Positions 5,007-53,244 of a stretch of DNA of 64,000 nucleotides are shown here, in pieces. How positions within the stretch are numbered: the first letter of the stretch is position 1; every line of letters starts with the position of its first letter. Below the pieces are notes generated by a model, which saw only the letters and a program-made list of their open reading frames with translations, searched no databases and was not told the origin of the DNA. Location of the stretch: assembly GCA_964463705.1 (NCBI GenBank), contig CAYXCH010000006.1, forward strand, positions 32,576 to 96,575, given 5' to 3'. The stretch is from an uncultured Pseudobdellovibrionaceae bacterium. Lineage in GTDB: Bacteria > Patescibacteriota > Minisyncoccia > Moranbacterales > GCA-2747515. The translations under genes and the position numbers were made by a program.

Positions 5007-5891
5007 CTACTTACCCAGCTCTACCGCCTCCACTTCAAAAATCAACACACTGTTGGGCTCAATTCCTGCCGGTGGCACACCCTGCTCTCCATAGGCCTGA
5101 TCCGCAGGAACAACAATTTCCCATTGATCTCCGATACGCATCGCTTTGAGTGCCGTGGCAAATCCGGGGATTGTCATCTTGGCACTCATAACCACCGGCT
5201 CCGTGTTGCCATCACGACGAGAGCTATCAAACTCCGTTCCATCAATTAATGTTCCGCGATAGTGAAGCTTAACATCCTGTGTACCGATAATTGGACCCGT
5301 ACCGGTGGCAAGTACTCGGTATAACACACCGTTCTCCAGTTCCTTTACGCCATCTTTTTTCTTGTATTCCGCCAGAAACTTCTCTCCCGCTTCCTTATTT
5401 TTCTGTGCACGCTCTTCCGCCTTCTTTTGCTCCACTTCCATGCGCTTCTCCAATACCGCGCGAACCATATCTTCAGACATTAGCGGTGATGATGTTTCCG
5501 TAATGGCATCACGAAAGCCGCGTACCACCATTCCCACATCAATCATTCCCTCCTGCACACCCGGCGCCGTTTTATATGCCGGCAAATTCTGCTGACCCAG
5601 TGCAGAGCCTACCGCATATCCCCACTGTTTTGGATTCATTCCGTTTACCTCATCAACAGTGGTCGGCAATCCGCTAAGTGCAACCTGTGCATTCTGCATT
5701 GCTTTGGACACGCCGCCATTCTTTTGCGCAACACGAACACCGTAAATCACCGCCGCAATAATGGCGACAACGATCAGCCAATTTCTTACCGTCGTCGGCA
5801 CCGGACACCGACGAGAAGATTTCCGTCGTGATGATGCATTAGTATGCGGAGTTACATCTCGCGCCTCTGTAGATTCTTCTTTCTGTGTCAT
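5007..5891 (-). CDS. Membrane-anchored FKBP-type peptidyl-prolyl cis-trans isomerase
   Basis: N-terminal TM helix (LIVVAIIAAVIYGV). C-terminal FKBP domain (YRGTLIDGTEFDSS ... IFEVEAVELGK). Confidence 0.8.
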   Translation of the reverse strand: MTQKEESTEARDVTPHTNASSRRKSSRRCPVPTTVRNWLIVVAIIAAVIYGVRVAQKNGGVSKAMQNAQVALSGLPTTVDEVNGMNPKQWGYAVGSALGQQNLPAYKTAPGVQEGMIDVGMVVRGFRDAITETSSPLMSEDMVRAVLEKRMEVEQKKAEERAQKNKEAGEKFLAEYKKKDGVKELENGVLYRVLATGTGPIIGTQDVKLHYRGTLIDGTEFDSSRRDGNTEPVVMSAKMTIPGFATALKAMRIGDQWEIVVPADQAYGEQGVPPAGIEPNSVLIFEVEAVELGK

Positions 5892-15040: not shown

Positions 15041-15676
15041 TTATACCGCATAGATTCGCACCATAAGAATAACCCCGCTTGTGAGGAAAAAAAATAACAT
15101 CGGTGAAGATAGTGCGCGTGCAAAGTACCCGATGAGCGCCGCCATCACCATTGCCACCGTTCCTCCGATAACCCCGACACCTATCTCTCCCGATGTTACC
15201 AACACTGAACATAGGGTAACAGCAAGTACTGTCATTATTCCCTGTCGCCATAAACCGCATCCAATCACTCCACCATAGAAAAACGCATGGACAATAGCGG
15301 AATACATTAACAATGCACTATACATTATCATTGATAATCCCTCCTGTGCAATTCCCGGAATCCGAATAACTTGTTCCAGTTCACGATTCATCGTAATCGC
15401 TACAAAAAATACCAGAGAGAGTGCCGCTGATGACAACAACGCCAATATCACTCCTCGCATTCCACCCCGACGACGAATACCATACGTGGAGAGCGGAAGC
15501 CGCGCTCCAAAATGGAGTGTAAATACCGGCAATGCCACAAAAAACGCAGTCAATACAATAACGTCCTGAATAACCGTTTCTCGAGGGAACACGCGATACA
15601 GCACCGCCGCACTCAGTGCCGTCATAATAATAATCATATCCCGACGATCAGGAAGAAATTTGTGGATTGCTTGCAT
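15041..15676 (-). CDS. Polytopic membrane protein. Possibly a CPBP/Abi-like intramembrane protease, but weak.
   Basis: Five to six predicted TM helices with NRELEQ and SAIVHAFFYG segments. These are reminiscent of CPBP motifs but not convincingly so. Confidence 0.45.
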   Translation of the reverse strand: MQAIHKFLPDRRDMIIIMTALSAAVLYRVFPRETVIQDVIVLTAFFVALPVFTLHFGARLPLSTYGIRRRGGMRGVILALLSSAALSLVFFVAITMNRELEQVIRIPGIAQEGLSMIMYSALLMYSAIVHAFFYGGVIGCGLWRQGIMTVLAVTLCSVLVTSGEIGVGVIGGTVAMVMAALIGYFARALSSPMLFFFLTSGVILMVRIYAV

Positions 15677-21553: not shown

Positions 21554-21937
21554 TTATAAAAAGATATCTTGTAAAAATTGTACCTGCGCTTTTCGTGTAT
21601 GCACATTAATACACACACTGATTGCGCAGTATCGTATCGCCCCCGTCCGCTGATATGCCCGGACATAGTATGCCATTACTCGCTCCATCGCGTGCAACTT
21701 TGCACGCGTAATACGCAGCTGTGGTGGATCCACATTCTCCGAGCTATGACGAAGACACGTTGTTTTTACTTCCACACAATACAAAACTCCCGAACGCTCC
21801 GCAATAATATCCACCTCTCCTCGCTTGATGGGAATCTTTGGCATATAATTGCGCGCAACAATATCATACCCCCGCCGTTGCAGATATCGCGCGGCAATTT
21901 CTTCCCCAAGCCGTCCGCATTCCCATGCTGTTGACAT
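21554..21937 (-). CDS. yraN: YraN-family (UPF0102) endonuclease
   Basis: GRLGEEIAARYLQRRGYDIVARNY...GEVDIIAE matches the YraN/UPF0102 signature. Confidence 0.8.
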   Translation of the reverse strand: MSTAWECGRLGEEIAARYLQRRGYDIVARNYMPKIPIKRGEVDIIAERSGVLYCVEVKTTCLRHSSENVDPPQLRITRAKLHAMERVMAYYVRAYQRTGAIRYCAISVCINVHTRKAQVQFLQDIFL

Positions 21938-21940
21938 ATA

Positions 21941-21965
21941 TACAAAAAGGCGGGAAATCCCGCCT
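21941..21965 (-). terminator. Intrinsic terminator ending the intergenic transcript, 8 nt upstream of the yraN ATG
   Basis: On the minus strand: AGGCGGG, AUUU, CCCGCCU, followed by UUUUUGUAUAU. Confidence 0.55.
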
Positions 21966-22495
21966 ACATTCCGTTAAGATACCGACAATCCACTGTCAGT
22001 CAATTCCCGGTGTCTTCCCGTATGAGGTGTTGTCACCGGGGGCACTGCGCCCCTAAACAGATTCCTTGGGCCGTGCCGCCCGGCTGATGCAGACAACATG
22101 CTGCGCGCTTCTCGTACTCGGGTGAATGGATACAAGAAGAAACAGTGCATGTAATATATCTGCCTCACACACGTGATTCTATCACGCGCTGACATGGTGC
22201 GAGCATTGCTCGCCTACGCCTCCCCGTCCGCGGGTTTGCTCCCCTTTTTTTCTTCAAGGTACTCGGTACACTTTTGTTTTTATTTTTGTGTTTTTGTATT
22301 TATGCTTGATAAATACGACCGTTTTGTTTTTGTTTTTTGTGTGTTGTGTTGTTTGCCGGCATCATATGATGCTCAGACTAACAAACATACGGACAGTGGA
22401 GACGTTCCGATTGTGAATAGGGGGGCTTCACAATCGGAACGTCGCCACCGTCGGCGTCCATGTCATTTCTTGTTAATGTGCGTTTCGTTACTGAC
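21941..22495 (-). ncRNA. Candidate ~555-nt non-coding transcript of unknown class
   Basis: Bounded by a near-consensus sigma70 promoter (22502..22530) and an intrinsic terminator (21941..21965). No ORF of meaningful length. Contains a perfect 17-bp hairpin (22398..22440) and an A/C-rich tract. Confidence 0.3.
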
Positions 22496-22501
22496 AAGCT
22501 C

Positions 22502-22530
22502 AGTATATCATCCTCTAAAGGCCACGTCAA
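22502..22530 (-). promoter_or_regulatory. Near-consensus sigma70 promoter
   Basis: On the minus strand: TTGACG, a 17-nt spacer, then TATACT. Confidence 0.5.
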
Positions 22531-22653
22531 CGCATTTATAAAAAAATGCCGTAAATAAAGGGATTTTTAATATGCTTACATAAAAACAATATAGTTGTTA
22601 TAAAATTATGCCAAAAAAATACCGCCATTTTTATTTAAAGTACAATAAAAAAC

Positions 22654-22679
22654 TGTGGAAAACTTGGTAGTTTTCCACA
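22654..22679. promoter_or_regulatory. Inverted pair of DnaA-box-like 9-mers
   Basis: TGTGGAAAA, an 8-nt spacer, then TTTTCCACA. The same 9-mer family occurs in the oriC clusters near dnaA. Confidence 0.4.
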
Positions 22680-22700
22680 GTTTCATATCATTTTCCCAAC

Positions 22701-23981
22701 TTATGGAAGAATTACCGTATCCTGATTGCCGCTAGGTCGGTCATCTTCTATATCACCCTCTCCGGATTCCTTCATAGTCTTTTCCGAAACAACTGAAACG
22801 CTATTTACATCTTCCGAAGAAGTGTTAACCCCCTCTGTCTCACCGGATTGACCGGATGAATCCTCTTTTTTAGACATTTCTTCAACACGACGTTGCGCCT
22901 CAGATGTGTAATCAAATACCCGATCCATCATGCGATACATGGTCGCACGACTTGTTCCGAAAAATACATGGTCATAATGTGTCGCATAATCAATAGATGC
23001 CGCAGCATCCGGTGTAAAATTGTAGAAACGAATCGGAACACCACGATGATCACTATCTTCAAACTCCGCATTGACAACCGGTGGAATATCAAAGTTATAT
23101 AATGGAGCAAATCCTTTGATAAGGGTTGTTTCCATCGTGCGTAAGTTATTACGCAATGCCTCCGACATCTCTGTGTATGTATGGATACCGAAACGAACTC
23201 CATAGTCACTCGGCAAGATATATAACTGAAATGGCTGATTCATTGCATCTACAATATCATCGGGGATAACTGTTAAAAATCGGTGCGCAAAGACAGAGAA
23301 TGGCATCGGTTCTCCATCTGCAATAACATCAACAACCATTTCCGATTCGGATGTATCCACAATAGAACGCAACGTGTTCACGACATCAATTGTCGTTGCC
23401 TGCTGCGAAATCATCAGTGAGCCGTGAGAAGGCTCGAACTGAAGAAACTGTTCTTGTGTGTACGTATATGGAGTGTTACTAAATGTAACGGGAGAATCAG
23501 ATGACTCAACGGGCTCTTTTATGGTAGGAGCAACCTCTTGAATCACCGGCTGTTCACCTATGGGTACCAGCGTGCGCAAAATCCGCCCTCCAAACACCAA
23601 TAAAAACAACAGAGCCAGTAAGGCAATCATTGCTCCGATAATGACTCCCACCCACAATCGTGAACGTGAAGCAGAGCGTGATGTATGAATGCGACCGTTC
23701 GGTTCTGTAACAGAAACCGTTCCTTGTTGTGGTGTTGGTGTTGGTGCTGGTGCTGGTGCTGGTGATGTGGTAGATGCTTGAGGGACAGATATATTTCCCT
23801 CCCCTCCGACAGATGTATTTGAAGATAAAAACGGGCCGGAATCTGTTGTTGAAGACGGTGACGAAGCAGCGGTTGCTGTTGTTTCAACCGCGGGAGATTG
23901 TGCGGCGTGTATATCATCTGCCATGGTGTGCACGCGAACCTCTGCTTTTGATTGGGTGTTTTTTGTTTTTTTTGCAAACAT
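22701..23981 (-). CDS. Single-pass membrane protein with Pro/Ala/Thr-rich segment and a large extracytoplasmic domain, hypothetical
   Basis: PAPAPAPTPTP tract, a TM helix (LWVGVIIGAMIALLALLFLLVF) and a ~280-aa C-terminal domain with an acidic tail. Confidence 0.55.
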   Translation of the reverse strand: MFAKKTKNTQSKAEVRVHTMADDIHAAQSPAVETTATAASSPSSTTDSGPFLSSNTSVGGEGNISVPQASTTSPAPAPAPTPTPQQGTVSVTEPNGRIHTSRSASRSRLWVGVIIGAMIALLALLFLLVFGGRILRTLVPIGEQPVIQEVAPTIKEPVESSDSPVTFSNTPYTYTQEQFLQFEPSHGSLMISQQATTIDVVNTLRSIVDTSESEMVVDVIADGEPMPFSVFAHRFLTVIPDDIVDAMNQPFQLYILPSDYGVRFGIHTYTEMSEALRNNLRTMETTLIKGFAPLYNFDIPPVVNAEFEDSDHRGVPIRFYNFTPDAAASIDYATHYDHVFFGTSRATMYRMMDRVFDYTSEAQRRVEEMSKKEDSSGQSGETEGVNTSSEDVNSVSVVSEKTMKESGEGDIEDDRPSGNQDTVILP

Positions 23982-24002: not shown

Positions 24003-24947
24003 TTATATGTCAGTATAACACAAATTTGCCACATCGTCAGGAATGGCGGCGGTATACACATGTCCCTCATACATCATTCGTAGTGCAACGGCACGCAATG
24101 CCAATCCCGCGTTCGTAGGTGTACGCCGACGATATACCGTATCTCCCACAATCGCATGCCCCAGTGCGGCGGCATGAACACGAATTTGATGTGTTCGTCC
24201 CGTCTGCGGATACACTACAACCTGCGTAACATTTGGATATCGGCGATGAACAACAAATGTTGTCATCGCCTCTCGCGCCGTCCCCCGATACGGTGTTCGC
24301 GTAGAGCGAATCGCCACCATCCGTCCACCTCGTGTACTGCGCGCAATCGGCCATGTCACCGTCCGTGTTGTCCATGGCACTCTTCCATGCAACAACGCAT
24401 GGTATGTTTTATGAACGCGTCGGCACTGAAATGCCTCCTGTAGACGCACCAACGCCGACGCAGAGCGCGCCACCACCATTACTCCGGCGGTTTCTCGATC
24501 CAGTCGGTGAACAATTCCACCACGCCGCGGGCCCTCTCCGACAACGGCAAGGTCGGGGTCTCGCGCCAACAATGCAGAGACCAGTGTCTCCCGAGAATCT
24601 ACAGACGGCGCACCGTGAGTTACCACACCGGCCGGCTTATACACAAAGTAGAAATCCTGATGAGTAAAAAGAATACGGACACTTGGATTGTCTTGCACCT
24701 CTATAATCGCCTCCTCATCGGGCGGCACGGTTCCCGTAATCCGAGAGTGCGGGCGAACATGCCGATGCGGAGCGACTTGCTGACCATCTACACGCAACGC
24801 CCCCGAGCGTAATGCTTGTGTTATGCGATGACGAGATATTGCGCCCTTGTAGACATTCGCGGCAATGTATGCGTCCAGTCGTTGCGATGGAACATTTTCC
24901 GGTACACTATGCTCACATTCCATATCACTAGAAGTCCCAGCTTCCAT
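24003..24947 (-). CDS. rluD: RluA-family 23S rRNA pseudouridine synthase (RluD-like) with N-terminal S4 domain
   Basis: Catalytic motif HRLDRETAGVMVVARS. The start may be the Met at 24923, which avoids the overlap with nrdB. Confidence 0.8.
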   Translation of the reverse strand: MEAGTSSDMECEHSVPENVPSQRLDAYIAANVYKGAISRHRITQALRSGALRVDGQQVAPHRHVRPHSRITGTVPPDEEAIIEVQDNPSVRILFTHQDFYFVYKPAGVVTHGAPSVDSRETLVSALLARDPDLAVVGEGPRRGGIVHRLDRETAGVMVVARSASALVRLQEAFQCRRVHKTYHALLHGRVPWTTRTVTWPIARSTRGGRMVAIRSTRTPYRGTAREAMTTFVVHRRYPNVTQVVVYPQTGRTHQIRVHAAALGHAIVGDTVYRRRTPTNAGLALRAVALRMMYEGHVYTAAIPDDVANLCYTDI

Positions 24948-41516: not shown

Positions 41517-42209
41517 TTACTTCATGCGCATCAGTACATCGCGGAAGCGAATGTACTCGGAAAATCGCAATCCCGTCCATTTACCTACGATAATATTCAG
41601 CGGAATTACCAATAATACACTGTACGGGTGCGCAAATACAAACATTTGGATAGCGCGAGATGACAGCAATGCATGTCCCAACAGTGCCACCACCAACGTC
41701 TCCACCGCCAATAATATCGCCGTCTTTGTTCCTTTTTCAATTTGTACCGCCACAAACTTCTCCGCAATCATCACCAACACAATCAACGGAAACACGTAAA
41801 TGGTGGCAAACCCGGTTCGCTGAAAGTATGCTCCGATTACCAACACCGCCAAGGTTGTAAATGACAATAACGTCATGGTAATCGCTACGCGCGGAAGGTA
41901 CAAAATTCGCACATGGCGCAGAACGGCACGGGAGGCAATGCCCACAACAATCACCGCAATATAAATGGTAATCCCGTACCGCAAATCATATAACATGTCT
42001 CCCAACGCAAACCCGTCATAGCGTGCGTCACTGATCATATAAAACACCAGAGCAATAATGGAAGGGGTGTAAATTCCAAATGCCTTAATTCCAATCACCT
42101 GACGCAGAACAGCCACCAGTGTCGCCACCAGCGGAAACAATAACAAAAGCAGCACCGTTTGGTCCGGAATTCCCAAATAAACAATGATATTATTGATCAT
42201 CGGATGCAT
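41517..42209 (-). CDS. Polytopic membrane protein co-transcribed with the RimK-retropepsin gene
   Basis: Six to seven hydrophobic helices. Only 4 nt separate it from the downstream ATP-grasp gene. Confidence 0.5.
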   Translation of the reverse strand: MHPMINNIIVYLGIPDQTVLLLLLFPLVATLVAVLRQVIGIKAFGIYTPSIIALVFYMISDARYDGFALGDMLYDLRYGITIYIAVIVVGIASRAVLRHVRILYLPRVAITMTLLSFTTLAVLVIGAYFQRTGFATIYVFPLIVLVMIAEKFVAVQIEKGTKTAILLAVETLVVALLGHALLSSRAIQMFVFAHPYSVLLVIPLNIIVGKWTGLRFSEYIRFRDVLMRMK

Positions 42210-48241: not shown

Positions 48242-48550
48242 TTATACACCAGTTTGCGCGACAACGCGGCGCACAACGGTTGCGTGACATGTCGTATTGA
48301 CATGCTCACACAACGCCGCCCGCGCCATCCATAATTCTTGCGCCCATAGCGCATCCGATACCGATACAATCAATACACCCGTTCGCAACGCTGTTACTCG
48401 CATCGCCGCCGCACCGCGACGACCATACTCTCGCTCAATATACCGTTGCGCAATATATATAACCGTCTTTTCATCCGGTACGCTACCGGACTCCGACGCA
48501 GTGGAGCGCCGTGACGCAAAGCGATCGGAAGAAATCGTTAGCTTTTTCAT
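48242..48550 (-). CDS. DUF721/DciA-like protein (putative replicative helicase loader)
   Basis: GVLIVSVSDALWAQELWMARAALCEHVN matches the DUF721 pattern (L.V.V.SS.WAQEL......L...N). It lies immediately downstream of dnaN. Confidence 0.55.
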   Translation of the reverse strand: MKKLTISSDRFASRRSTASESGSVPDEKTVIYIAQRYIEREYGRRGAAAMRVTALRTGVLIVSVSDALWAQELWMARAALCEHVNTTCHATVVRRVVAQTGV

Positions 48551-49653
48551 GTGCGAATCGGCATCACGACATAACGATACGCCGTTGCGCCATCATGTGG
48601 CACAATCAGCACCGGAGCGGCGGGCTGCGTAATATGGATTTCCACCGAATCACTGCCACATCGCGATACACCATCCAACACATACCGAGGATTAAGACGC
48701 AATGTTTGCGATCCTCCTTCCACCGTTGCCGAAAGCGTTGTTGTGTGTGTACCGCTTTCCTGTGACGCCGCGGACAGCGTTAGTGTATCTTTTTCCACCG
48801 CCATTTCCATATCACTGTTAATGCGATGAGCGAATGTTTGCGCCACTCGTAAGGCCTTCTCCATATCTCCACGAGATACTACCGCCACTGTTTCACCACG
48901 AGAAGGAATGATTTGCGCATAATCCGGATATGTCGCCGCAATCAATCGTGACACAATCGTAACATCACCGCAACGAACAAACATCTGCCCATCACCTACC
49001 ATCATCCGCACCCCATCATCCGGTACATCCGTCAACACGGAAAGAAGTTCCGCAACAGCGGATGCCGGAACGATAACACTATCGGTAAACCCTCCTTCGG
49101 TACGAGTACACCGCACCTCCGCCAAACGAAATCCATCCGTTGCGGCAAGAACAATATCTTCTCCGTCCGATGCAATAAATACCCCACCCAATTCCGGACG
49201 CGCTTCCGTCTTTGCAACACAGGGAATCACGCGAGACAGTGCATCACGAAATGACGCCACCGGCACTACAACCGCCGTCTCCGCCGACTCCGCAGATGGC
49301 AATGGGGGGAAATCCGCCGCATCCAACATTGGAAGCGTCGCCTGACTCCTCTTTGCACGAATCAATACCGAGCGATCTTGTGTTTCAATTGTTACCACAT
49401 CATCATCTTGCAGTGGCGCGATAAAGCTCCCTAATAAATGCGGCGCACATACCACCTGCCCATCGCGTTCCGCTTTCGCCGACAACTGCACCCGCACACC
49501 GACATCCAAATTTGTCGCTACACAAGATGCAATACCATCACCGACGGATAATAAAACATTTCGCACAATGGGCAATGTACCATCTCGTGCCACCGCCTTT
49601 GCGCTCAACCGAAGCGCGCGATCCAAATGTTGTTTTGTAATGGTAATCTTCAT
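48547..49653 (-). CDS. dnaN: DNA polymerase III beta sliding clamp
   Basis: MKITITKQHLDRALRLSAKAV N-terminus and a three-domain length, directly downstream of dnaA. Confidence 0.85.
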   Translation of the reverse strand: MKITITKQHLDRALRLSAKAVARDGTLPIVRNVLLSVGDGIASCVATNLDVGVRVQLSAKAERDGQVVCAPHLLGSFIAPLQDDDVVTIETQDRSVLIRAKRSQATLPMLDAADFPPLPSAESAETAVVVPVASFRDALSRVIPCVAKTEARPELGGVFIASDGEDIVLAATDGFRLAEVRCTRTEGGFTDSVIVPASAVAELLSVLTDVPDDGVRMMVGDGQMFVRCGDVTIVSRLIAATYPDYAQIIPSRGETVAVVSRGDMEKALRVAQTFAHRINSDMEMAVEKDTLTLSAASQESGTHTTTLSATVEGGSQTLRLNPRYVLDGVSRCGSDSVEIHITQPAAPVLIVPHDGATAYRYVVMPIRT

Positions 49654-49863: not shown

Positions 49864-51276
49864 CTACAGGTTACGCAACTTCTTTCTCAATGTGTCAAGA
49901 TCCGAACGCAATGTCGCATCTTGAGTACTGTTTTTTCTTACCTTACGATACCCATGCATAACGGTGGAATGATCTCGTCCGCCCAATTGCGATCCAATTT
50001 CCGGAAACGAGAGATTGAGCTCTTCTCTTAGCAGGTACATGGCGGCATGACGCGCTCCGGCAATTGCTTTTTTTCGTGATGTGCCGCGTAAATCGTCCGG
50101 GGATACACCAAAGTGCTCCGCTACAAGTTCAAGTACCGAGGAGGCGGTATTTGCCGGTGTGTTTCGCGTCACGTGCGGAGCAAGGATTTCCTCTACAACG
50201 GCACGAGACGGAATACGATTATGGAATGTACACAGAGCGGCGATTTTATTTAATGCTCCCTCTAACTCACGGACATTTTGCGCCACATGTTTGGCGATAA
50301 ACTGTGCGGCATCTTCCGGGAGAATAAGATCTTTTTCATCCGCTTTTTTTTGCAGAATCGCTACCCGAGTTTCAAAGTCCGGTGGGCTAATGTCCGCAAT
50401 CATACCACCTTCAAAGCGAGAGCGCAGGCGATCTTCCAGTGTGGCGATTTCGTGAGGTGGACGATCGGAGGAAATGATAATTTGCTTGTTTTGTTGGTAC
50501 AGATGGTTAAAGATATGGAAAAATTCATCTTGTGTTTTCTCTTTTCCCGCCAAAAATTGTACATCATCAATAATCAGTAGATCAATTTCTCTATAGAGGC
50601 GCTTAAAATCGGAGATGGTGTTATTGTGAATGGCATCAATCAATTCACTGGTAAATCGCTCCGAAGAGGTGTAAAGTACGCGTTTAGTGGGATCATTTTT
50701 GACAATAGCATTTCCAATCGCTTGCAGGAGGTGCGTTTTTCCCAGTCCGACATCGCCATAAATAAATAAAGGGTTGTAGGCGCTTCCCGGAGTGGCGGCA
50801 ACTGTTCGTCCCGCAGCATGTGCCAATTCGTTATGAGAGCCGACGATAAAATTGTCAAAAGTATATCGTGTGTTGAGATAGGTATTTGTTTGCGGTGTCG
50901 GTTTCGTGCGAGGAGTGGTAATCGGAGGTGTGGTTGGTGTGGATGATGTTGGACGAAGTGTTGGGCGCTTTGGTTTTGAGGGTAGGGTGGATGGTGCTCC
51001 AACACGGACGGCATCTACACTTCGTGGAGGTGCGGCAACAAGATTGCACCGGATTCGTGTAACATTCGGTGCATGTTTTTTTAGTGCGCGAACTACAATA
51101 TCGGCACACTTGGTTTCAATCCAACTTTTAGCAAACCCGTTTGGTGTACGGATGACCGCACAATCTCCTTCAATGGACTCCAGGGCGGTATTTTTGAACC
51201 ATGTAATAAAATTTGCGCGAGAAATGGATAACTCAATTTCCCCCAGCGCCGCTGTGTACAATTTTTGTAGATCCAT
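49864..51276 (-). CDS. dnaA: Chromosomal replication initiator protein
   Basis: AAA+ Walker A GDVGLGKTHLLQAIGN, Walker B LLIIDDVQFL, and C-terminal DnaA-box-binding helix-turn-helix. Confidence 0.9.
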   Translation of the reverse strand: MDLQKLYTAALGEIELSISRANFITWFKNTALESIEGDCAVIRTPNGFAKSWIETKCADIVVRALKKHAPNVTRIRCNLVAAPPRSVDAVRVGAPSTLPSKPKRPTLRPTSSTPTTPPITTPRTKPTPQTNTYLNTRYTFDNFIVGSHNELAHAAGRTVAATPGSAYNPLFIYGDVGLGKTHLLQAIGNAIVKNDPTKRVLYTSSERFTSELIDAIHNNTISDFKRLYREIDLLIIDDVQFLAGKEKTQDEFFHIFNHLYQQNKQIIISSDRPPHEIATLEDRLRSRFEGGMIADISPPDFETRVAILQKKADEKDLILPEDAAQFIAKHVAQNVRELEGALNKIAALCTFHNRIPSRAVVEEILAPHVTRNTPANTASSVLELVAEHFGVSPDDLRGTSRKKAIAGARHAAMYLLREELNLSFPEIGSQLGGRDHSTVMHGYRKVRKNSTQDATLRSDLDTLRKKLRNL

Positions 51277-51515
51277 AGGAAAAATGTATTGCGTTTGGTT
51301 TTAGTTTACCACATGACAATAGTTGTTGTGGAAAACTGTGGAAAAAATAGTGGAAAACATGATACTTTTTCACAGTGTTATAAAAAAACGTTGGAAATAA
51401 AAGAAAACTTCTGTACATATAGTACAAAAGTTTTCCACAGTTTGATAATAATTAAGATGAAAAAACTGTAGGAGAATTAATATAATTTCCCATTATGAAA
51501 GTGATTTTTCCACAG
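51277..51515. promoter_or_regulatory. Probable oriC. A DnaA-box array flanks AT-rich unwinding segments.
   Basis: Three TGTGGAAAA-type boxes at 51327..51357 and three TTTTyCACA boxes at 51366..51374, 51431..51439 and 51506..51514. AT-rich stretches lie at 51380..51430 and 51442..51505. Confidence 0.55.
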
Positions 51516-53244
51516 TTTCTTGTGTATAAACATGTAAAACATCACCTTTTTTAATTCGCACCGGTGTTGTGATTTGTATTCCACACTCTTTTCCGCTCGT
51601 AATCACATCCGTATCCATTGCACCCTCTTTAATTCCCGTAATTTCTCCCACTGCCAACTCTGTTCCGTCTCGCATGATACGAGCAAAGGTGTTGGGCCGC
51701 AATTCTCCCGTATCCACAATACCCCCGATAATCATGCGCTGTTGTTCTTTGTGGAAAATTGCCAGCACATCAACGGTCCCAATATCGGTGCGGATAACTT
51801 CATCGGGAAGGTTGTCCAACAATGTTGCTGTAATGGCGTCCACCACTTCATAGATAATGGAATATGTTTCAATCGTAACACCACGATCCTCTGCCATTCG
51901 TCGCGCAACAGAGGTGGCGTGAATATTAAACCCGTAAATGCGTGCTCCGGCACTTTGTGCAAGTTTAACATCGGACTCCGTAATATTTCCCACTCCGGTG
52001 GATACAATATCCAATGCGATTTTTTTCTTCGGAATAGTGTCCAAAATTTGTATGATTGCTTCAATAGATCCTTGAACATCCGCTTTAATGAGAATGGGAA
52101 GATGTGGAATATCATCCTCGGTTTTCTTTGTAGTGACTTCTCCCTCTGCGCGGCGCGCTTTGGCACGGGCGATTTGTTTTCCACTCACGACTTGTACAAC
52201 ATCATTGACATCCGGAGCATCGTTGAGTCCGTAAATTGTAACAGCGCTACTGGGTGGTGCACTGGAAACACTGCGTCCCGTATGATCTTCCATGCGACGA
52301 ATGCGCCCATGAGTGGATCCAACAGTAACATCATGTCCCACTTTTAGTGTTCCCGTTTTTACAACAACAGTTGCGGTCGCTCCCTTTTTTGGATCTCTGT
52401 GGGATTCCAATACCACCGCCAACCCATCACGTTCCTCATCGGCACGGTAATCTTCCACTTCCGCCAGCAATAGAATATTTTCCAATAAATCACCGATTCC
52501 GATATTGTTTTTCGCACTGATTTCATTGCAAATGATATCACCGCCCCACTCTTCAATCATCAATCCATGCTCCGCAAGCTCTTGTTTTACTTTTGCAACA
52601 TTGGCGGTGGGTTTATCAATTTTATTGATGGCAACAATTGTTTTGATATTGCGCTCTTTAATATATGCAATCACTTCCTCTGTTTGCGGACGAATACCAT
52701 CATCGGCGGCGACGATAAGAATTGCAATATCGGCAAGTGACGCTCCGCGCTCACGCATGGCGGCAAATGCCGCGTGTCCCGGAGTATCAATAAAAGTAAT
52801 GAATTTCCCTCGTTTTTTGACTTGATACGCACTGATATGTTGCGTAATGCCCCCCGCTTCACTTGCTGCAACACTGGCGGCGCGAATTGTGTCCAATAGT
52901 GTTGTTTTTCCATGATCAACATGTCCGAGAATTGTGACAACCGGCGGACGGCTGCGGAGATTTTTTCCACTTTCTCGCTCTTTTTCGCAAATTGTCAAGA
53001 CATCTTCCAGCGTCAGTGTATCATCATCGCCAACGGTAACATCAGGATGTGGAGAAAATCCCAAATCTTCCGCGATAATCACCGCCGTTTCATAATCAAT
53101 ATCTTCATTGATGGTTGCCATGATGCCGTTTTTCATCAACTCACCGATAACGGTGGTAACCGGCAATTCCATAATTTCCGCCAATCGTTTAACGGTTACG
53201 CGATCGGGAATGGCGATTTCGCGAAGTGAAGAAGATGTTGTCAT
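51493..53244 (-). CDS. infB: Translation initiation factor IF-2 (short form, 583 aa)
   Basis: G-domain ILGHVDHGKTTLLDTIR, DTPGHAAF and NKID motifs. C-terminal beta-barrel domains. Confidence 0.9.
   Translation of the reverse strand: MTTSSSLREIAIPDRVTVKRLAEIMELPVTTVIGELMKNGIMATINEDIDYETAVIIAEDLGFSPHPDVTVGDDDTLTLEDVLTICEKERESGKNLRSRPPVVTILGHVDHGKTTLLDTIRAASVAASEAGGITQHISAYQVKKRGKFITFIDTPGHAAFAAMRERGASLADIAILIVAADDGIRPQTEEVIAYIKERNIKTIVAINKIDKPTANVAKVKQELAEHGLMIEEWGGDIICNEISAKNNIGIGDLLENILLLAEVEDYRADEERDGLAVVLESHRDPKKGATATVVVKTGTLKVGHDVTVGSTHGRIRRMEDHTGRSVSSAPPSSAVTIYGLNDAPDVNDVVQVVSGKQIARAKARRAEGEVTTKKTEDDIPHLPILIKADVQGSIEAIIQILDTIPKKKIALDIVSTGVGNITESDVKLAQSAGARIYGFNIHATSVARRMAEDRGVTIETYSIIYEVVDAITATLLDNLPDEVIRTDIGTVDVLAIFHKEQQRMIIGGIVDTGELRPNTFARIMRDGTELAVGEITGIKEGAMDTDVITSGKECGIQITTPVRIKKGDVLHVYTQETVEKSLS

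Follow-up and report, generated by a model that had tools for sequence, protein, structure and literature searches.

The gap that is the subject of this study lies at positions 21938-22700 of a 64,000-nucleotide (nt) stretch of Moranbacterales DNA, hereafter the window. It is gene-free, and is located between an open reading frame (ORF) of 426 amino acids (aa) (22701-23981, minus strand) and yraN (21554-21937, minus strand; Pfam UPF0102, E=3e-17), which is the downstream neighbour in 8/8 genomes. The genes further downstream form a type IV secretion system (T4SS) cluster of the monoderm type (TrbL_3, PrgI, TraC-like and VirB4-like). An earlier note on this DNA had claimed that the spacer contains no credible ORF and encodes a candidate non-coding RNA of ~555 nt. 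The ORF list and the public gene calls do leave the gap empty, with no gene call inside it in two public assemblies of the same contig, and the transcript that we predict (22495-21944, minus strand) is ~552 nt long. We conclude that 22495-21944 encodes a structured, multi-domain non-coding RNA of ~550 nt that is absent from Rfam and was previously undescribed. The family has so far been found only in one clade of Candidatus Moraniibacteriota, within the Candidate Phyla Radiation (CPR)/Patescibacteria. That the RNA is real and structured we consider very probable.

The near-consensus promoter that had been noted on the minus strand was recovered at 22502-22530. It consists of a -35 box TTGACG (22530-22525), a 17-nt spacer and an extended -10 box TGaTATACT (TATACT at 22507-22502, TG at 22510-22509), and it is the top-scoring promoter match on this strand within 14 kb. 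At the other end of the gap there is an intrinsic terminator (21965-21944, minus strand; AGGCGGGA-UUU-CCCGCCU), with a 7-bp GC-rich stem followed by a U-run. This terminator had been placed 8 nt before yraN; it is present, but it ends 6 nt before the ATG (21937), the intervening sequence being GTATAT. The transcription start site (TSS) of the ~552-nt RNA was inferred from the -10 box, and its 3′ end from the terminator. The sense strand folds with a minimum free energy of -214.7 kcal/mol (z = -9.1 relative to shuffled sequences), and the antisense strand has a z of -6.4. Because the conserved promoter and terminator bracket the unit, and the G-U pairs in its helices fit the minus strand only, the minus strand was taken as the transcribed one. 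A TATACT box with an upstream TG was also observed at other promoters, namely CTGACG-17-TGnTATACT (24012-24040, minus strand) ahead of the gene for the 426-aa protein, and TGGTATACT at the gene 41517-42209, 6 nt upstream of its ATG (42209). The RNA promoter therefore uses the ordinary strong -10 form of this organism.

Relatives were gathered in two ways, from the loci that hold the eight nearest homologues of TrbL and by one metagenome pattern scan. The TrbL homologues belong to Patescibacteria; of the contigs with a name, the nearest is from a Candidatus Moraniibacteriota metagenome-assembled genome (MAG). Seven further genomes share the order 4xx-aa membrane protein, 720-950-nt gap, yraN and trbL, which makes 8 genomes in all, and in these the full shared order is 4xx-aa membrane protein, DnaA boxes, promoter, RNA, terminator, yraN and trbL. 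The ortholog loci are L003, L004 (=L006), L024 (~L029), L025 (~L028), L026, L027, and L030/L031 with L035/L034; the last four represent one genome, which a contig break divides within hairpin H1. The TrbL proteins of the ortholog genomes share only 33-55% identity, yet the gap aligns over its full length. The TTGAC box, a spacer of 17-18 nt and TGnTATACT are invariant in all orthologs, and are followed after 554-603 nt by a hairpin and a U-run. Invariant blocks of 8-16 nt occur throughout the RNA, and the hairpins between them vary in sequence and length with their pairing kept. The earlier note had said that a region unconserved and variable in length among close relatives would speak against the proposed RNA; the opposite was seen, with promoter, transcript length, terminator and invariant blocks kept in the 8 genomes. 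An nhmmer profile of the RNA found exactly one copy per locus, at 250-490 bits, and no copy elsewhere in the window or in the L005, L032 and L033 loci.

Further scans extended the family little. The metagenome pattern scan added 3 contigs only, two of them near-duplicates of known orthologs, and two pattern scans of viral contigs gave 0 matches. A scan of genome contigs with an 18-mer returned 18 matches, where ~17 exact chance matches were estimated; one was real, from the same MAG as L004, and none of the others fell inside a known RNA. A protein scan of genome contigs with YraN as the query gave no matches. Another locus, L036, comprises just 200 nt upstream of trbL and is uninformative for the RNA. 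The possibility of a protein-coding gene or pseudogene was discarded, as similarities between stop-free segments were short and present in all six frames; public gene callers place nothing consistent across the orthologous gaps. The yraN calls of L003 (5549-6001, 150 aa) and L024 (4095-4592, 165 aa) extend N-terminally over the 3′ tail of the RNA and the terminator. The conserved ...RGDFGE start of YraN falls after the terminator in both, and these extensions are probably over-extensions by the gene caller.

The RNA structure was analyzed by comparison of the orthologs. RNAalifold predicted 59 pairs from nine sequences, 13 of them with compensatory double changes. Folding by hand and module by module gave the 5′ to 3′ order leader, H1, strand B, V1, AAAAACAAAAACAAAA, V2, ACAAAAACAAA, AGUACCUUGAAG, H3, strand C, V3, V4, helix D:D′ enclosing V5 (with its UUCACCCGAG loop), Pa/Pb, GACAACACCU, a variable hairpin, YCGGG, a variable tail and the terminator. 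When the orthologs were folded singly, modules V1, H3, V3, V4, D:V5:D′ and Pa/Pb adopted the same architecture despite differing stem sequences. The GC-rich local hairpins described earlier are thus present on the minus strand, and the compensatory changes that were looked for across relatives were found, with the helices maintained. Covariation is clear for H1, B:C and the V hairpins.

The 5′ leader (22453-22495) is variable in length and carries a semi-conserved GCACAUURACAA motif. It is followed by hairpin H1 (22401-22452), whose 17-bp inner stem (22443-22427 paired with 22417-22401) closes the conserved loop GCCCCCCUA (22426-22418). This is the perfect 17-bp inverted repeat with a 9-nt loop reported before; the repeat itself stands, but its coordinates are 22401-22443 rather than 22398-22440, a shift of 3 nt. 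The inverted repeat extends imperfectly to 26 nt per arm, and an outer extension is possible, in which GACGGUGG (22452-22445) pairs with CCACUGUC. Across the orthologs the loop reads GYCCCCCUA (hereafter the C6 loop). Of the 17 inner-stem pairs, 8 are changed on both sides, and 97.5% of the alignment cells are paired, compared with 33-49% when the 3′ partners were slid by 1-3 columns. The genome split between L030/L031 and L035/L034 is represented by two independent assemblies, GCA_054013435.1 (L030 1-60 and L035 2944-3026) and SRR33956865 (L031 and L034), and both break inside H1. At the start of L030 ~60 nt look garbled and show no complementarity to the H1 5′ strand of L035. Probably the long perfect inverted repeat of H1 disrupts assembly in this genome.

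Strand B (UCCACUGUCCGU, 22389-22400) pairs either with strand C, over a long range, or with the 5′ outer strand of H1. It is followed by a junction region (22272-22388) that contains V1, the conserved AAAAACAAAAACAAAA (22337-22322), V2 and the conserved ACAAAAAC... (22297-22272). An A/C-rich low-complexity tract had been noted at 22262-22352. The composition was confirmed (79% A+C and 59% A on the minus strand), but this is not one continuous low-complexity run: the conserved motifs AAAAACAAAAACAAAA and ACAAAAAC... are parted by a small hairpin. Next come the invariant single-stranded block AGUACCUU(GAAG) at 22252-22263, and, at 22218-22244, hairpin H3 (GGGGAGCAAACCC) and strand C (GCGGACGGGGAGGC), which pairs with B and thereby closes the 5′ domain. 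In 7/7 orthologs no other part of the RNA forms as stable a duplex with B as strand C does (-14.2 to -17.5 kcal/mol). Both strands are changed in L024 (GUCCC/GGGAC, and G/C at the other end) and in L026/L027 (GUCUAU/AUAGAC, with the bulged A now paired). In the MAFFT and covariance model (CM) alignments L026/L027 are four columns out of register, so that they were counted as unpaired for B:C; realignment with covariance model R1 left this misregister, and B:C was documented in their own register. The alternative partner of B, GACGGUGG on the H1 5′ side, ranks second or third; this pairing is compatible with most sequences, with three mismatches and wobble-mediated covariation only. The two pairings of B are mutually exclusive, and the 5′ domain could act as a conformational switch between them. 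Partners for AGUACCUU and for the C6 loop among the remaining blocks were also considered, and were dropped because none is conserved across the orthologs.

Strand C is followed by hairpins V3 (22213-22199) and V4 (22188-22170), in which the sequence varies between orthologs and the pairing is kept. In the 3′ domain, helix D:D′ (22163-22147 paired with 22101-22089) surrounds V5, the loop of which is the invariant UUCACCCGAG (22126-22117). Hairpin Pa/Pb (GCCGGGCG...CCCGGU, with both ends invariant), together with the invariant GACAAC that follows, occupies 22025-22084. In this domain 81% of the cells are paired, relative to 36-47% in the slid controls, a count in which upper Pa is affected by an indel register problem. 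The 3′ tail (21966-22024) is variable, and its sole conserved element, YCGGG (CACCGGG, 22012-22006), is a possible partner of CCCGGUG. The invariant CCCGGUG has thus two alternative partners, GCCGGG within hairpin Pa or the tail YCGGG; pairing within Pa is backed by compensatory changes higher in the stem, and pairing with the tail by one-sided changes only.

We then compared the RNA with known families. No Rfam 15 model matched at gathering score in the whole window or in three relatives, riboswitch families included in the case of the window. In E-value mode nothing was returned at E≤10 for the region, or at E≤5 for four orthologs, beyond chance-level microRNA-like hairpins. The OLE (ornate, large, extremophilic), ROOL, GOLLD, raiA and HEARO models gave no match at E≤10 in the window or at E≤5 in the orthologs, ARAGORN reported tRNAs only and no transfer-messenger RNA (tmRNA) in the window, blastn gave no match to plasmids and phages, and literature searches retrieved no description of such an RNA. 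The earlier label of an ncRNA of unknown class is therefore in agreement with the covariance-model scan, which was blank for the window and the orthologs. The same is true of the earlier failure to match RNase P, tmRNA and signal recognition particle (SRP) motifs, or to find these RNAs elsewhere in the 64-kb window by Rfam and ARAGORN; matches to 6S RNA were likewise not obtained.

Individual candidates were rejected on their own marks. For RNase P RNA there was no CM match, and CR-I GAGGAAAGUCC and CR-V ACAGAA..GGCUUA (P4) are absent from the invariant blocks. A tmRNA is recognized by its tRNA-like domain (paired ends, T-arm and CCA end) and by a conserved tag reading frame. Neither tRNA-like 5′/3′ ends nor a T-arm are found in the invariant blocks, the RNA ends being its least conserved parts; the candidate tag frames differ, by eye, between the window and L003, and a frame in the A/C tract was dropped as unconserved. 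SRP RNA is marked by the domain IV motif with its GNAR loop, and 6S RNA by a ~190-nt rod with a central bubble. The present RNA has no domain IV motif and no Rfam match to either, and a multi-domain architecture instead of a rod. A riboswitch, or an attenuator of the terminator-antiterminator type, is marked by a conserved sensor domain with a strand in direct competition with the terminator stem, and was rejected because the spacer between core and terminator (30-110 nt) is unconserved, and the sole complementarity to the terminator (repeat I3) is not conserved in L003. Four smaller resemblances were dropped by eye as unconserved across orthologs: a Shine-Dalgarno (SD)-like GGAGG downstream of strand C with a small ORF behind it, a start codon that follows the second A/C tract, an RNase P P4-like GUCCG/CGGAC, and a group II domain V-like CCGUAUG.

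The transcriptional context was analyzed at the level of the window. SD-like 4-mers precede 4/41 genes, and 3.6 were expected from shuffles, which amounts to no SD use, while -10-like boxes 5-8 nt before start codons occur in 13/41 genes, where 5.9±2.1 were expected. From these two results many mRNAs look leaderless, which suggests that leaderless mRNAs may be widespread in this Moranbacterium; starts with a close -10 box include those of trbL (21531) and of the ORFs at 15676 and 42209. The trbL box, the extended -10 TGATATAAT 7 nt before its ATG (21531), indicates that the T4SS genes have their own promoter, independent of that of the RNA. No start codon lies at leaderless distance from the RNA promoter, and the stretch between core and terminator is unconserved in length and sequence among orthologs, which does not fit an expression platform of the riboswitch type. 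On these grounds an independent RNA gene is favoured. On the minus strand there is no other good promoter match until well into the operon, and few terminator-like sites were found inside it.

Upstream of the promoter there is an AT-rich spacer (22531-22648, ~28% GC), preceded by the hairpin that terminates the 426-aa gene (22649-22684, minus strand), the arms of which are the DnaA-box-like 9-mers TTTTCCACA. Relatives share a conserved DnaA-box array, 140-210 bp before the point where the RNA starts. Most of them have three boxes (TGTGGATAA, TGTGGATAA and TTATCCACA), spaced at a fixed 31 and 17 bp, and the second and third together make up the hairpin that terminates the upstream gene; the pair in the window, TTTTCCACA, is weaker. 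The array was located at 22649-22684 in the window, and at L003 4827-4882, L004 4699-4755, L024 3392-3417, L025 4734-4790, L035 2754-2810 and L026 4641. Such an array could serve as a roadblock or regulator that depends on DnaA, or could titrate DnaA. The RNA locus was rejected as the replication origin, the features of which lie near 51.3 kb instead: five TTTTCCACA boxes at 51277-51760, with the cumulative GC-skew minimum (~51.3 kb), adjoin dnaA (49864-51276, minus strand) and dnaN (48547-49653, minus strand), and gene orientation diverges near 53.8 kb. The probable chromosomal origin, as predicted from these features, is at 51277-51760. In L005, dnaA and a DnaA-box-rich 282-nt spacer (5297-5579), which is probably oriC, stand immediately before yraN-trbL, so that DnaA boxes ahead of yraN are the common theme across the clade.

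The upstream 426-aa protein and its orthologs are clade-specific membrane proteins with an MF...(V/I)(H/R)TMADD N-terminus, a disordered Q/S/T/P-rich linker, one transmembrane helix and a conserved ~200-aa C-domain. For the C-domain (AlphaFold pLDDT 74) the best PDB fold had E=0.018 and a TM of 0.29-0.41, which is not significant. Searches with the protein, alone or as a profile, returned 4-5 proteins, limited by the word index. In L026 the ortholog follows a row of T4SS pilin genes, so the protein may belong to the secretion system.

How might this RNA work? We infer an independent transcription unit, with an RNA that would act in trans and would probably be the scaffold or partner of one or more proteins. 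In the fold read from the sequences, H1 of the 5′ domain carries the C6 loop, and B:C closes a junction holding two conserved ACAAAAAC-type single strands, AGUACCUUGAAG and H3. After two variable hairpins, the 3′ domain is formed by D:D′ around the hairpin presenting UUCACCCGAG, followed by the GCCGGGCG/CCCGGU hairpin. The putative binding or active surfaces would be the C6 loop, the two A/C tracts, AGUACCUUGAAG, the UUCACCCGAG loop and GACAAC, and strand B may switch between the 5′ side of H1 and strand C, giving two conformations of the 5′ domain. Leaky termination at 21944 would feed yraN, on which the RNA would probably also have an effect in cis. We give this reading, an independently transcribed trans-acting structured RNA, probably in a ribonucleoprotein, with leaky termination into yraN, an even chance of being correct as described. 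A bolder version is doubtful, and is put forward tentatively: the RNA would be the first member of a new class of large, ornate RNA specific to CPR/Patescibacteria, a ribonucleoprotein scaffold or ribozyme with a B-A/B-C switch, that works with the flanking membrane protein and the T4SS/yraN genes, and whose synthesis is tied to replication through the DnaA boxes.

Several observations speak against a trans-acting RNA, or limit the case for it. Neither in the window nor in L003 does yraN have its own promoter, and its start lies 6-14 nt past the terminator, so that read-through is its sole visible route there; on the predicted signals the RNA is then the physical 5′ leader of any yraN mRNA in both. 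The TSS and the 3′ end are themselves predictions. L005 falls inside the clade on the TrbL neighbour-joining tree, yet has no RNA at its yraN locus, and in that genome the RNA would be either dispensable or moved elsewhere. No partner protein was identified, and the neighbouring 426-aa protein has neither a Pfam domain nor a significant match in fold. The comparison includes only ~6 independent lineages, covariation cannot test invariant helices or any pseudoknot, and the shuffle control for the pair counts ignores phylogeny. The rarity of the family (eight MAGs/contigs of one clade) limits both the power of covariation and the general impact of the finding.

The main rival is a role in cis, which is retained because yraN needs read-through and because monoderm conjugation operons have leaders of this kind. 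The RNA would be the long 5′ leader of a yraN(-T4SS) transcript, and would set how much read-through occurs at the terminator (21965-21944), either by attenuation via alternative pairings or by processive antitermination like that of put, EAR or conAn2. Consistent with this, the RNA is directly upstream of yraN-trbL and co-oriented with them in 8/8 genomes, the 6 nt between terminator and yraN in the window leave no room for a promoter, and two pairs of mutually exclusive pairings are available (B with A-outer or C, and CCCGG with GCCGGG or YCGGG). Moreover, monoderm conjugation operons are known to open with long leaders, in which attenuators and a large antitermination RNA are found (PMC8191782, PMC13401043), and the Patescibacterial T4SS is described as of the monoderm type (PMC12102498). 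However, the extended -10 box of trbL frees the T4SS genes from the RNA promoter, and -10-like boxes between the terminator and yraN were observed by eye in L024 and L004. No anti-terminator pairing with the terminator arms is conserved, repeat I3 of the window being absent from L003, and the spacer of 30-110 nt before the terminator is unconserved. In L005 and L032, yraN and/or the T4SS genes do without the RNA. Finally, the conserved complex fold of ~480 nt far exceeds the requirements of any known attenuator. A cis leader is a real possibility, but on this evidence a rather unlikely one.

The trans-acting reading was also weighed against a narrower version of itself, a sponge of the CrcZ/CsrB type, in which single-stranded A/C-rich ACAAAAAC repeats titrate an RNA-binding regulator. 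Variable hairpins are indeed separated by two to four ACAAAAAC-type motifs, which rank with the best-conserved bases in the RNA, and a weak local CrcZ match was obtained at 22316-22341. But this match (10.6 bits, E=3.1, against a gathering score of 95) is at chance level, no gene for Hfq, Crc or CsrA was seen in this genome, although no search aimed at one was made, only 2-4 copies of the motif exist where such a sponge has many, and more than half of the conserved sequence belongs to a non-repetitive 3′ domain that a sponge would not need, which makes a sponge quite unlikely. An element acting in DNA, either a DnaA-binding or secondary replication locus or the origin of transfer (oriT) of the neighbouring T4SS, with the inverted repeats functioning as DNA, would account for the 2-3 DnaA boxes at fixed 31/17-bp spacing and the AT-rich stretch just upstream, for dnaA and oriC occupying the position of the RNA in L005, and for the adjoining T4SS genes. 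We hold it to be very unlikely: the DnaA boxes are outside the conserved ~550-nt unit, the GC-skew minimum and the main DnaA-box cluster of the window are at ~51.3 kb, next to dnaA and dnaN, and no relaxase is among the Pfam assignments of the neighbouring genes, while the unit is bracketed by an invariant promoter and terminator and maintains more than 10 helices whose G-U pairs fit one strand only. There is, lastly, the idea of a divergent universal RNA (RNase P, tmRNA, SRP or 6S RNA) missed by the covariance models. Its size and strong, apparently constitutive promoter resemble those of a housekeeping RNA, and none of these RNAs is found elsewhere in the window. Even permissive Rfam searches gave no match, neither with the window at E≤10 nor with four orthologs at E≤5, and the P4, tRNA-like, T-arm and SRP domain IV motifs are absent from the invariant blocks; the candidate tag frames are unconserved between the window and L003 (by eye), and the family is confined to a tiny clade and has no copy at the L005 locus. 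This last idea is extremely improbable.

Members of the CPR/Patescibacteria live as epibionts; they are ultra-small, have reduced genomes and are for the most part uncultivated. When a genome of this kind keeps a ~550-nt RNA under strong selection, fixed beside T4SS genes and a DnaA-box array, that RNA likely matters to the cell. Alignments A1-A3 and A7, together with model R1, define the family well enough for searches of metatranscriptomes and assemblies, and for the design of probing and pull-down experiments.

Compared with known systems, the RNA shares with conAn2 and with the zipper-type attenuator cATT of pLS20 (PMC8191782, PMC13401043) a large structured RNA transcribed from the promoter before monoderm-type T4SS genes and followed by an intrinsic terminator, and a long hairpin stem that flanking complementary strands can extend or compete with. 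As to placement relative to conAn2, it is upstream of and co-oriented with yraN-trbL in 8/8 genomes, but the terminator intervenes and trbL has its own -10 box and hence its own promoter. It differs also in lacking blastn similarity to plasmids. No gene for a ConAn1-like factor was identified among the neighbours, which have no informative Pfam matches, although no ConAn1-profile search was made. Its competing strands do not involve the terminator, and its conserved core is much larger. With CrcZ and CsrB it has in common conserved A-rich single-stranded motifs shown between hairpins of variable sequence, but it has 2-4 motifs only, a large non-repetitive 3′ domain, and a CrcZ match at chance level. 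RNase P RNA and tmRNA are similar in length class, in having a strong promoter and in the long-range helix that closes a multi-helix domain; their signature motifs are all absent, and the CM and ARAGORN searches were negative. The OLE, ROOL, GOLLD and raiA RNAs, to which there is no Rfam match, are orphan large bacterial RNAs. OLE RNA has the partners OapA/B/C. The Moranbacterial RNA comes from another phylum (CPR), has a tiny distribution (8 MAGs), and forms a transcription unit separate from that of the neighbouring protein. Like them it is ~550-600 nt long, with many conserved helices interspersed with invariant unpaired nucleotides, and it is likewise encoded by a single-copy gene adjoining that of a membrane-anchored protein, with a function that is not deducible from sequence. 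The resemblance to these four is one of size and complexity only. Large intricate bacterial RNAs are rare, and those of known function do fundamental jobs.

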